64,000 bases of DNA from an uncultured Verrucomicrobiota bacterium (lineage in GTDB: Bacteria > Verrucomicrobiota > Kiritimatiellia > CAIVKH01). Each line of letters begins with the position of its first letter. Within the stretch, counting starts at the first letter, position 1. The stretch is from assembly GCA_937872895.1 (NCBI GenBank), contig CALMUP010000008.1:68976-132975 (forward strand). The letters are read 5' to 3'. A program made the translations under genes and the position numbers. Positions 19,753 through 50,337 of the stretch are shown piece after piece. The notes beneath the pieces are model-generated. The model had not been told where the DNA came from and searched no databases. It saw only the letters and a list, made by a program, of their open reading frames with translations.

Positions 19753-19786
19753 GAAGCGCTCCCCGCAAGGGGGGCGCTTTTTTTAT
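19753..19786 (+). terminator. Rho-independent terminator after ahcY
   Basis: Stem AGCGCTCCCC-gcaa-GGGGGGCGCT followed by TTTTTTT. Confidence 0.7.
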
Positions 19787-19913: not shown

Positions 19914-19982
19914 ACTTCGACTTCGCTCCGGGCATTCGACGCGGATGGCCCGCCATGAGCAAGCTGAACGAAGTGAAGCGCG
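19914..19982. repeat. Solo copy of the 107-bp repeat unit, truncated exactly at the GIY-YIG stop codon
   Basis: cttcgacttcgctccgggcattcgacgcggatggcccgccatgagcaagctgaacgaagtgaagcgcg matches the tandem units at 20276-20670. Confidence 0.7.
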
Positions 19983-19984
19983 GA

Positions 19985-20266
19985 TCACGTCCGGGAGCGG
20001 CTCAATGCTTTCAGACTCACGTGATCGCCCCGTACGAGGGCTAGTTTCTTTGCCCTGGACCATCGCTTAATCTGTTTCTCGCGGGCAATGGCGGTAGCGT
20101 GATCAGGCGCCGACTCGGAGTAGATAAGTTTTCCGAAGCCATGATGAGCTACATGCAGGGCGCCACGTTTTTCCGAATGGTAGGACATTCGCTGTTCGAG
20201 GTCATGGGTGTGCCCTACATAGAGCGACCCATCACCACATTCGACTATGTAAACGGCGTATTGCAT
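19985..20266 (-). CDS. GIY-YIG nuclease family protein (stand-alone URI domain)
   Basis: 93 aa. YAVYIVECGDGSLYVGHTHDLEQRMSYH… is a classical GIY-YIG motif. Confidence 0.75.
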   Translation of the reverse strand: MQYAVYIVECGDGSLYVGHTHDLEQRMSYHSEKRGALHVAHHGFGKLIYSESAPDHATAIAREKQIKRWSRAKKLALVRGDHVSLKALSRSRT

Positions 20267-20275
20267 GGGTAAGCC

Positions 20276-20673
20276 CGCCCTTCGACTACGCTCAGGGCAT
20301 TCGACGCGGATGGCCCGCCATGAGCAAGCTGAACGAAGTGAAGCGCGTCGAGTCGTGGTGTCTTCATCGTATATCTAAAGTTCGCCCTTCGACTTCGCTC
20401 AGGGCATTCGACGCGGATGGCCCGCCATGAGCAAGCTGAACGAAGTGAAGCGCGTCGAGTCGTGGTGTCTTCATCGTATATCTAAAGTTCGCCCTTCGAC
20501 TTCGCTCAGGGCATTCGACGCGGATGGCCCGCCATGAGCAAGCTGAACGAAGTGAAGCGCGTCGAGTCGTGGTGTCTTCATCGTATATCTAAAGTTCGCC
20601 CTTCGACTTCGCTCAGGGCATTCGACGCGGATGGCCCGCCATGAGCAAGCTGAACGAAGTGAGGCGCGTCGAA
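20276..20673. repeat. Tandem array, about 3.7 copies of a 107-bp unit
   Basis: Units at 20276-20382, 20383-20489 and 20490-20596 are near-identical. The fourth, partial unit merges into the 3' flank of tRNA-Ser. Copies are identical with no unique spacers, so this is not a CRISPR array. Confidence 0.85.
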
Positions 20674-20768
20674 TGGCGGAGAGAGAGGGATTCGAACCCT
20701 CGGTACCTGGTTAACCCAAGTACAAGTGATTAGCAATCACTCGCATTCGACCACTCTGCCATCTCTCC
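20674..20768 (-). tRNA. tRNA-Ser (anticodon GCT), type II with long variable arm; CCA encoded
   Basis: The reverse complement folds as GGAGAGA / D-arm / anticodon stem AGTGA, loop TTGCTAA, TCACT / long variable stem / T-arm GAGGGTTCGAATCCCTC / acceptor / G / CCA. Confidence 0.85.
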
Positions 20769-20874
20769 GCACGGGTCGTATTCCGGGAAGGAATGAGCGC
20801 AACCTAGCGGATTCATTCCTGTGCGGCAAGGTGTTTCTGGTTGGCGGGGGAAATCAGGCCGGTATGCTGGAGCC

Positions 20875-50261: not shown

Positions 50262-50337
<76 letters not shown>

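Follow-up and report, generated by a model that had tools for sequence, protein, structure and literature searches.

The locus described here lies in a 64,000-nt stretch of DNA (the window) from an uncultured bacterium of the Verrucomicrobiota (Kiritimatiellia; assembly GCA_937872895.1, contig CALMUP010000008.1, positions 68,976 to 132,975) and combines a tRNA gene, several copies of a sequence of about 75 nt that we term the core, and a gene for a small GIY-YIG nuclease, all on the minus strand. In the direction of transcription, tRNA-Ser(GCT) (20674..20768; called by ARAGORN, 61 bits with the Rfam tRNA model) is followed by four full cores, a 93-amino-acid GIY-YIG open reading frame (ORF; 19985..20266) and a truncated fifth core. 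Core copy 1 (TTCGAC...GTCGAAGGGC; 20598..20673) starts at the base after the tRNA CCA, and copies 2 (20491..20565), 3 (20384..20458) and 4 (20277..20351) are each preceded by a 32-nt spacer. The three spacers are identical (GAACTTTAGATATACGATGAAGACACCACGAC; 20352-20383, 20459-20490, and 20566-20597) and, with copies 2 and 3, fill the interval 20352..20597. Copy 4 is the leader right upstream of the nuclease gene. Copy 5 (19915..19982), which begins 2 nt beyond the stop codon of the gene, lacks roughly its first 5 nt as well as the GGGC tail, and a single substitution is present in its CCCTGAGC.

Tandem Repeats Finder delimited an array with a period of 107 nt at 20276-20672 (3.7 copies, 99% matches), and a repeat search located a 68-nt core five times (19915-19982, 20280-20347, 20387-20454, 20494-20561, and 20601-20668) with 97-100% identity to the reference copy. 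The five cores differed from one another by just 1-3 substitutions, and a 34-nt core pattern matched the window five times compared with 0 matches expected from 100 shuffles. Counted from the ATG of the nuclease gene, the array restarts 13 nt upstream if the 68-nt core is considered and 10 nt upstream if the full core is considered (20277; the Tandem Repeats Finder boundary is 20276). The gene occupies a spacer-like position between two cores, and this anatomy, which had been proposed in a preliminary description of the sequence, was recovered by ARAGORN, Tandem Repeats Finder, the repeat search and Pfam. The G+C content was 54.3% for the ORF and 39% for the spacer, compared with 62.4% for the window. 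Each 107-nt unit also contains an ORF of 36 amino acids with an ATGA stop/start overlap, and the 3' end of the spacer (...GACACCACGAC) loosely resembles the ...ACCA end of a tRNA.

The nuclease matched the Pfam GIY-YIG domain (PF01541) over residues 3-74 (E-value 3.6e-17; 62.9 bits against a cut-off of 22.6). Its relatives of solved structure in the Protein Data Bank were BH0048 (1zg2; E-value 9.2e-11) and EF2693 (1ywl; E-value 4.2e-4). The similarity to this structural family, the length of 93 amino acids and PF01541 as the sole domain detected place the protein in the UPF0213/YhbQ family, whose members are widespread. The protein consists of the catalytic domain and a basic C-terminal helix of about 20 amino acids, which carries a KRWSRAKK sequence conserved among the homologues. 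Residues Y6, Y16, G18, R26, H30, and E63 were invariant in an alignment of 23 homologues, and from general knowledge of the GIY-YIG fold we take them to be catalytic. No match to the nuclease was found in NCBIfam, PADLOC or PHROG (E-value up to 1e-3 for PHROG), and our literature search found no paper on the function of UPF0213/YhbQ proteins (COG2827) or on a link between them and tRNA genes. The ratio of nonsynonymous to synonymous substitutions (dN/dS) between orthologous cassettes was 0.07-0.25 at dS values of 0.7-2.9, indicating that the protein is kept by selection.

A second, independently assembled genome of this species (L062; GCA_035324265.1) contained the same locus with one unit fewer. 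The array is therefore real, and either polymorphism or difficulty of assembly explains the different copy numbers; an assembly artefact, which the preliminary description had considered, does not account for the locus. Each spacer in L062 has one extra T, and the rest of the locus is identical. Because the unit is then 108 nt long, an ATG in the spacer opens an ORF of 163 amino acids (3216-3707 of L062, minus strand; compare 20245-20736 of the window) that passes in frame through two core units and continues into the GIY-YIG domain. An exact look-up of the 93-amino-acid product found no record, probably since the other assembly gives the 163-amino-acid in-frame ORF.

Comparison of orthologous tRNA-Ser loci, as had been suggested in the preliminary description, revealed empty sites. 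In a related genome (L063), the order of the genes for adenosylhomocysteinase (AhcY), tRNA-Ser(GCT) and GDPD was retained and GDPD was 81% identical, but neither core nor nuclease was present, and the tRNA CCA was followed by TTCGGTCTG... instead. A more distant relative (L065) with the same tRNA-Ser(GCT)/GDPD neighborhood was likewise without the cassette. Through these two genomes the locus exhibits presence/absence polymorphism in otherwise conserved surroundings, which is a trait of free-standing homing endonucleases.

No integrase-like gene was present in the ORF list between the flanking AhcY and GDPD genes. The second tRNA gene of the window, tRNA-Lys(CTT) (50262-50337), had no adjoining core. 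The Rfam model for the Plastid-psbl-rps4 3'UTR matched the plus strand of the window at 20677-20733 with 58 bits, below its gathering score of 68, and also matched L039 and L052; this was a false lead, as the match is the antisense of the 3' half of tRNA-Ser and the model evidently holds an antisense piece of that tRNA.

Distribution of the core and its association with tRNA genes

The occurrence of the core was assessed by scanning one genome per species for 185,579 species with a pattern composed of TCATGGCNGGCCAT, a gap of up to 61 nt and AATGCCCTGAG. Fifty-nine loci with a core were detected in at least seven phyla by our count, and core-bearing groups included Verrucomicrobiota (Opitutae and Puniceicoccaceae), Kiritimatiellia, Acidobacteriota, Planctomycetota, Bdellovibrionota, Patescibacteria, and Acidimicrobiia. 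The blocks common to the window, L001 and L002 were TTCGAC, GCTCATGGC(A/G)GGCCAT, and GTCGAATGCCCTGAGC ... GTCGAAGGGC. The length of the element ranged from about 75 to 150 nt across loci, and variant families were recognized, namely a TGGTG/CCCCGAGC type and the types represented by L081 and L084. Searches of Rfam 15 with the window and eight other loci (E-value up to 1) returned only tRNA, tmRNA and chance matches. A literature search by gene family, tRNA/tmRNA context, conserved DNA words and pseudo-peptides found no description of an element composed of the core and a GIY-YIG gene; the papers of relevance that it yielded were confined to the precedents of SegB and the theta ribozymes.

Three features that lay outside the search pattern were the upstream CCA|TTCGA, the adjacency to tRNA or tmRNA genes, and the downstream GIY-YIG ORF. 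The CCA|TTCGA sequence was found within 90 nt upstream of 58 of 69 cores. Of the 68 junctions for which 100 nt or more of upstream sequence was available, 45 coincided with the 3' terminus of a full-length tRNA or tmRNA gene that has the same orientation as the core; the host tRNAs represented 17 anticodons in addition to tmRNA. The other 23 junctions were preceded by a 3' fragment of a tRNA or tmRNA of 5-32 nt (orphan copies), and seven of the orphan copies started inside the T-loop. A GIY-YIG ORF on the same strand was detected within 450 nt downstream of 43 of the 69 cores, and about one third of the cores were solo copies without a nuclease. Several copies were present at different tRNAs inside one genome. 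The tRNA-Gln(TTG) gene carried the cassette at the same locus in at least seven genomes of the Opitutae group. Five loci of this group (L068, L127, L028, L077, and L030) had a conserved AAAGTTCGCATTTC...GGACCGGGCAGCCA ahead of the core where ARAGORN called no tRNA, and this region represents either orthologous copies of one orphan locus or a tRNA-like gene that has degenerated.

The closest homologue of the nuclease (P0001; 61% identity) was encoded on a metagenome contig (L001) with the order tRNA-Ser(CGA), core, GIY-YIG gene and a perfect second copy of the core over 72 nt. The junction between tRNA and core on this contig, CCA|TTCGACGCGCC, was identical to that of the window, and the GCGTAGTCGAAGGGC variant of core copy 4 was common to both. 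The two cores of L001 were identical, yet the nucleases of L001 and the window were only 61% identical. Since cores are near-identical within a locus when the nucleases have diverged to this extent, duplication or homogenization of the core is recent in each lineage.

A core downstream of the gene was detected in the window, L001 and L052 only. The general module thus comprises a tRNA or tmRNA gene, a core and a nuclease gene, with the core as the leader of the gene, and the bracketing of the gene by cores is a derived state. These findings do not fit the earlier proposal that the gene had inserted into a pre-existing repeat. Nor does the array appear to have arisen by reiteration of the host tRNA 3' flank, as had been proposed, given that the core occurs at tRNA and tmRNA 3' ends in many phyla and is absent from L063 and L065. 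The core is a conserved element rather than host flank, and the 107-bp array is a local amplification of it. The view that nuclease and repeat belong together was upheld by the GIY-YIG ORFs downstream of 43 cores; the repeat was found in relatives of the element, and the gene was repeat-associated elsewhere.

The association was also examined starting from the protein. Among 80 metagenome loci chosen by protein, 67 had enough upstream sequence, and CCATTCGA was present upstream in 10 of these, mainly in the closest relatives of the window protein (about 45% identity or more). Because it is mainly close relatives that carry the core, the association is a property of a subclade and not of the whole UPF0213 family. 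Searches of phage sequences by tblastn matched UPF0213-like genes of about 42% identity, and the one example inspected was not beside tRNAs. In distant, mostly alphaproteobacterial UPF0213 genes (P0026, P0031, P0041, P0047, P0052, and P0065; L128), the proteins had tails such as ASTSSARTE, PSTSSGRTG, and FDRLRQAQ. These tails are translations of a CCTTCGACAAGCTCAGG-type palindrome just 3' of the gene, and a related motif therefore accompanies the UPF0213 family in another position and orientation.

Traces of rearrangement were common among the cassettes. Serial cores were found between tRNA and gene in L005 (two), L079 (two) and L086 (three), and L039 contained two tandem 138-nt core units in this position. 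An intact and a degenerate core were present together at the tRNA-Gln loci of the Opitutae group. Locus L052 contained three copies within 0.8 kb. Copies two and three each follow 19-22 nt of a tRNA 3' end, and copy three breaks off directly after GGCCAT. In L039 (2600-6700), two units composed of a tRNA-Ser 3' fragment, a core and a GIY-YIG gene flanked a segment of about 3.5 kb that encodes a Gp49 (HigB-like) and HTH_3 (HigA-like) pair and an FGE-sulfatase. No integrase was found in the segment between the two copies, which may be a mini-island captured between two cassettes. Nuclease ORFs were split, frameshifted or truncated in L011, L013, L045, and L056, and these degenerate ORFs together with the solo cores correspond to the cycle of invasion, decay and loss that is a trait of homing endonucleases.

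Covariation in the core and expression of the nuclease

Pairing within the core was evaluated on a gap-free, anchor-based alignment of 57 distinct cores, in which pairs were counted for two long-range helices and one short stem. Helix S1 pairs CA, TTCGAC and a variable segment x with x', GTCGAA and TG, and takes in the last two bases of the tRNA. Helix S2 pairs a segment y and GCTCA with TGAGC and y'. The short stem, a 3-bp TGG/CCA inside TCATGGCNGGCCAT, was invariant and hence uninformative. Standard pairs accounted for 72.6% of the cells, compared with 69.2% when the 3' partners were shuffled (the observed value was reached in 0 of 500 shuffles) and 26-36% when the partners were slid by 1-3 columns. 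The covariation score was 0.145, compared with 0.099 for shuffled partners (0 of 500) and at most 0.08 for partners slid by 1-3 columns. At columns 13/64 of S1 the pair was GC in 21 sequences, UA in 19 and UG in 6, and at columns 16/61 it was CG in 21, GC in 10 and UA in 5. When partners were swapped between sequences, S1 had 2.74 extra Watson-Crick pairs compared with 1.11 for the swapped partners (maximum 1.71).

RNAalifold analysis of 15 short cores predicted a variable hairpin with compensatory changes (CG in seven sequences, GC in six) and a conserved 10-bp helix formed by GCUCAUGGCA and UGCCCUGAGC. Pairing of the 5' end with the GTCGAA copy in the tail was also predicted; the extension of this helix was no better than with shuffled partners, so that its basis is the conserved bases themselves. 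Further compensatory changes were observed in the variant cores. In L084, TGG|TTCGAC...GTCGAA|CCA takes the place of CCA...TG. In L078, CACCA pairs with TGGTG, and the same TGGTG occurs in L086 after a different helix. In L081, the pairs GCTCAAGGCC/GGCCTTGAGC and GGCCTT/AAGGCC were found, the latter in place of GCCCT/AGGGC, for which L086 has GCCCC/GGGGC. Because S2 shares bases of its 3' strand with the 5' strand of the GCCCU/AGGGC hairpin, the two structures are mutually exclusive. Three words resembling the T-loop were present in the core (CCATTCGAC, GTCGAATG, and GTCGAAGG).

The strand order S1-5', S2-5', S1-3', S2-3' is pseudoknot-like; S1 has 8-21 bp, UGCCC lies between S1-3' and S2-3', and there is no P4. 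The fold of ribozymes like that of hepatitis delta virus (HDV) is a nested double pseudoknot with a 7-bp P1, P1.1, P3/L3, P4 and a catalytic C in J4/2. Judged by hand, neither an HDV-like nor a hammerhead fold appears to fit the core.

The tail of core copy 4 in the window contains GAAGGG (20278..20283, minus strand) 11 nt before the ATG. Among eight loci the corresponding tail GTCGAAGGG ended 6-11 nt before the start codon in seven (11 nt in the window) and 16 nt before it in the eighth. From its sequence and position, the GAAGGG tail is probably the Shine-Dalgarno sequence of the nuclease gene. Neither a sigma-70-like site nor a terminator-like site was found between the tRNA and the nuclease gene in the window, and on the way from the tRNA to the convergent AhcY gene a single terminator-like site was detected, a hairpin (19753..19780, terminator scan) shared with AhcY. 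This layout suggests read-through from the tRNA promoter. The preliminary description had offered the repeat as a promoter of the gene, a role that gained no support; the tail is better explained as a ribosome-binding site.

In several loci of Opitutae and Puniceicoccaceae, no start codon of the nuclease was found near the first beta-strand and the frame was open from the 3' half of the core or from a degenerate core, which suggests that the core was recruited as an N-terminal extension of the GIY-YIG protein in these loci. The open-frame loci were L009, L019, L021, L044, L051, L060, L008, L016, L018, L039, and L052, with readings of M..MPDL..I.CP....G / VECPEPVEGL. A general reading frame through the core was considered and rejected: ECPE was in frame with the nuclease in 11 of about 24 loci, different frames are used in the window and in L001, and the frame is interrupted by inserts that vary in length.

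Interpretation of the cassette and alternative explanations

The explanation that we favor, with a probability of roughly one half, is that the core and the nuclease gene form a compact selfish cassette of the homing type, which depends on read-through from the tRNA and in which recombination stimulated by the nuclease yields arrays and orphan copies. The cassette would lack its own promoter and would instead be carried on transcripts that start at the tRNA promoter and read through. The core would then be the folded 5' leader of the nuclease mRNA, consisting of the S1 helix with the tRNA CA, the variable hairpin and the GCUCAUGGCA/UGCCCUGAGC helix, and the last of these would compete with a 3' hairpin (GCCCU/AGGGC) that covers the Shine-Dalgarno-like GAAGGG. 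The nuclease is proposed to cut DNA at or near T-loop-like sites of the TTCGA type in the 3' part of the tRNA and in the core, and recombinational repair of the cuts would spread or maintain the cassette at tRNA flanks. Tandem core arrays such as that of the window, solo cores, and orphan copies with tRNA 3' fragments would be by-products of this repair. Read-through, gating of the ribosome-binding site, the cleavage site, homing and the causal link between nuclease and amplification are steps that we infer. Of the original suggestion that a selfish or homing GIY-YIG element targets the repeat, the selfish or homing character is retained as the best reading, whereas the insertion of the gene into a repeat that was already there is not.

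A wider proposal, which we put forward tentatively and regard as possible but doubtful, is that the core and the UPF0213 nuclease represent a new class of minimal autonomous mobile element of about 0.4 kb that homes to tRNA and tmRNA 3' ends across phyla. In this view the core would act as a novel structured RNA, which might process itself at CCA|UUCGAC and would both safeguard maturation of the tRNA and control translation of the nuclease, and the nuclease would recognize T-loop-like TTCGA sites or a DNA hairpin of the core. If this were true, it would give the UPF0213/YhbQ family its first biological role. There is a substantial chance that clarification of what the core does will show the cassette, a free-standing GIY-YIG element tied to tRNA genes, to be a class of its own.

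Several observations weigh against the homing-type cassette. Cleavage, target choice and mobility are themselves inferred, and breakpoints in the T-loop are also typical of the attachment (att) sites of tyrosine integrases. The loci were chosen by an exact match to 24 conserved bases, and the conservation of both searched blocks is to that extent built in. The bracketing of the gene by cores, from which targeting of the repeat had been suggested, was limited to the three loci named above, and no sequence similar to the 32-nt spacer was found in any fetched locus or in the metagenome contig collection. Pfam and the alignment revealed no module in the 93-amino-acid protein for binding a long specific DNA site. 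Searches of IMG/VR viral contigs and of phage and plasmid records turned up no copy of the core, the nuclease proteins group largely by phylum, and recent horizontal transfer was not evident. Retention of the cassette at tRNA-Gln(TTG) together with strong purifying selection fits a module useful to the host as well as a persistent parasite. In the partner-swap test the extension of S2 gave a weak result (1.61 compared with 0.92, maximum 1.8). G:U pairs were not in excess over A:C pairs in S1 and were in mild excess in S2, and folding as RNA is therefore not separable from folding as single-stranded DNA or a cruciform.

Other explanations of the core account for part of these data. It is rather unlikely, but compatible with a selfish cassette, that the core is chiefly an RNA-processing device at the tRNA 3' end. 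As a new self-cleaving ribozyme, or by mimicking a substrate of RNase P, RNase Z or RNase III, it would free both the tRNA and the nuclease mRNA at its 5' end, in the manner of theta ribozymes beside phage tRNAs. The start of the first helix exactly at position +1 after the tRNA, the pseudoknot strand order, and the strong conservation of unpaired blocks next to a gene whose synonymous sites are saturated all agree with such a device, and theta ribozymes provide a precedent for a cleavage site adjoining tRNAs (PMC10879173). However, no Rfam ribozyme model matched in the window and eight other loci even at an E-value of 1, S1 spans 8-21 bp and takes in the tRNA CA, the lack of P4 and the 5 nt between S1-3' and S2-3' are unlike an HDV-like fold, and there is no hammerhead-like core. 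We judge it unlikely that the cassette is a domesticated host module, in which the nuclease has a cellular role such as repair where tRNA loci are highly transcribed, the core is a cis-regulatory leader or a tRNA 3' trailer or terminator, and the array of the window is plain replication slippage. Long-term retention at tRNA-Gln(TTG) in Opitutae-group genomes, the low dN/dS, the grouping of proteins by phylum, the absence from the phage and plasmid collections, and the alternative helices at the ribosome-binding site, which look regulatory, are in keeping with domestication. It is difficult to reconcile with the patchy distribution (about 59 loci in 185,579 species genomes with a strict pattern), empty sites in close relatives, seventeen host anticodons in addition to tmRNA, a G+C content below that of the surrounding genome, and the multiple copies per genome, solo cores, pseudogenes and orphan copies with tRNA fragments.

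A pair resembling type III toxin-antitoxin systems, in which the repeat RNA, once processed into units, would neutralize the downstream nuclease as in ToxIN, is improbable. In its favor, the window has four repeats in tandem immediately ahead of a small nuclease gene of the same orientation, with no intervening terminator, and serial cores were also seen at several further loci. Against it, the majority of loci carry just one core, nuclease-free solo cores are frequent, the protein has the fold of a GIY-YIG DNA nuclease and not that of a ToxN/AbiE-type RNase, PADLOC gave no match, and strict adjacency to tRNAs would be left unexplained. The start of orphan copies in the T-loop, which is the classic crossover position of integrases, and the 3.5-kb segment of L039 between two copies of tRNA fragment, core and GIY-YIG gene would agree with the core being part of the attachment site of integrase-mobilized tRNA or tmRNA islands that carry the GIY-YIG gene as a passenger. 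This is very improbable, as neither the L039 segment nor the compact loci contain an integrase, the window, L001 and many other loci consist of a tRNA, a core and a 0.3-kb gene only, and L052 has three copies within 0.8 kb. Local slippage or an assembly artefact without wider meaning is scarcely tenable. The 99% identity of the units and the different copy number in two assemblies, possibly from collapse of the repeat in short-read assembly, are what it would predict, but the locus was present in two independent assemblies, and conservation of the core across phyla with covariation refutes it for the core itself.

The core-tied subclade at tRNA and tmRNA 3' ends offers a concrete and testable context for the UPF0213/YhbQ family, two members of which have solved structures. 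On the practical side, the core gives rise to spurious ORFs (VECPEPVEG/NALSE-type peptides) and to mis-called N-terminal extensions of GIY-YIG proteins, and its repeat arrays may collapse in assemblies.

Comparison with known systems

The cassette resembles several known systems in part. As in integron cassettes with their attC sites, a short imperfect palindrome alternates with an ORF or spacer, and the arms of the palindrome covary about a variable center. In contrast to integrons, the position is fixed at tRNA 3' ends, and there is no integron integrase and there are no R or L core sites. The tandem, RNA-like repeats directly upstream of a small nuclease gene in the window recall ToxIN, but the repeats are 107 nt rather than about 36 nt, mostly one copy is present, the protein belongs to another family than the toxin, and PADLOC gave no match. 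With repeats confined to the window and a few other loci and a GIY-YIG protein, the cassette is not a member of the type III toxin-antitoxin systems. The IS200/IS605-OMEGA systems (TnpB/IscB) similarly combine a small nuclease gene with a conserved structured noncoding element at the boundary of a mobile unit, and the pairing of bases just outside the core (CCA) with internal bases recalls target recognition by base pairing. The cassette differs in that it has no TnpA, TnpB or IscB, a different nuclease fold and no evident guide segment, and the CCA pairing covers 2-5 bp.

The nuclease itself is closest to UPF0213/YhbQ/BH0048 (COG2827), which are bacterial relatives of the Slx1 nuclease domain and share with the window protein the single GIY-YIG domain and the KRWSRAKK C-terminal helix. 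It differs from the family as a whole in that only the subclade closest to the window protein is associated with the core.

Theta ribozymes are minimal HDV-like ribozymes located beside phage tRNAs, with many tRNA isotypes as hosts (PMC10879173). The core is similar in being a structured RNA, if it is folded as such, whose first helix starts from the base after the tRNA 3' end, and in having many isotypes as hosts. Unlike theta ribozymes, it has no HDV-like Rfam match, its long first helix extends into the CCA, it lacks P4, and it is chromosomal and linked to a nuclease. If the proposed RNA structure is correct, the core would be the second kind of structured element at tRNA 3' ends, after theta ribozymes.

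SegB, one of the free-standing GIY-YIG homing endonucleases of T-even phages, is encoded in a cluster with tRNA genes. It cuts at sites in which RAWTSGAAC is enriched, and it drives tandem segmental amplification by recombination that depends on UvsX and UvsY (PMC13096335). By our own reading, RAWTSGAAC would be a T-loop sequence, and it resembles the ATTCGAC/GTCGAAT motifs of the core. The two systems are alike in having a GIY-YIG gene among or next to tRNA genes, a sporadic distribution and degenerate copies. They differ in that the cassette is chromosomal and not phage-borne, and in that the window nuclease is a 93-amino-acid UPF0213 catalytic domain with no DNA-binding domain; it had no PHROG match and is not a member of the phage Seg family. 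A conserved, covarying element lies exactly at the tRNA 3' end in the cassette, and nothing like it is described for SegB, the only such nuclease compared, in the SegB paper (PMC13096335). By analogy, the SegB precedent makes it plausible that breaks introduced by the nuclease lead to tandem arrays. If so, the cassette would be a chromosomal, cross-phylum counterpart of the association of SegB with phage tRNAs.

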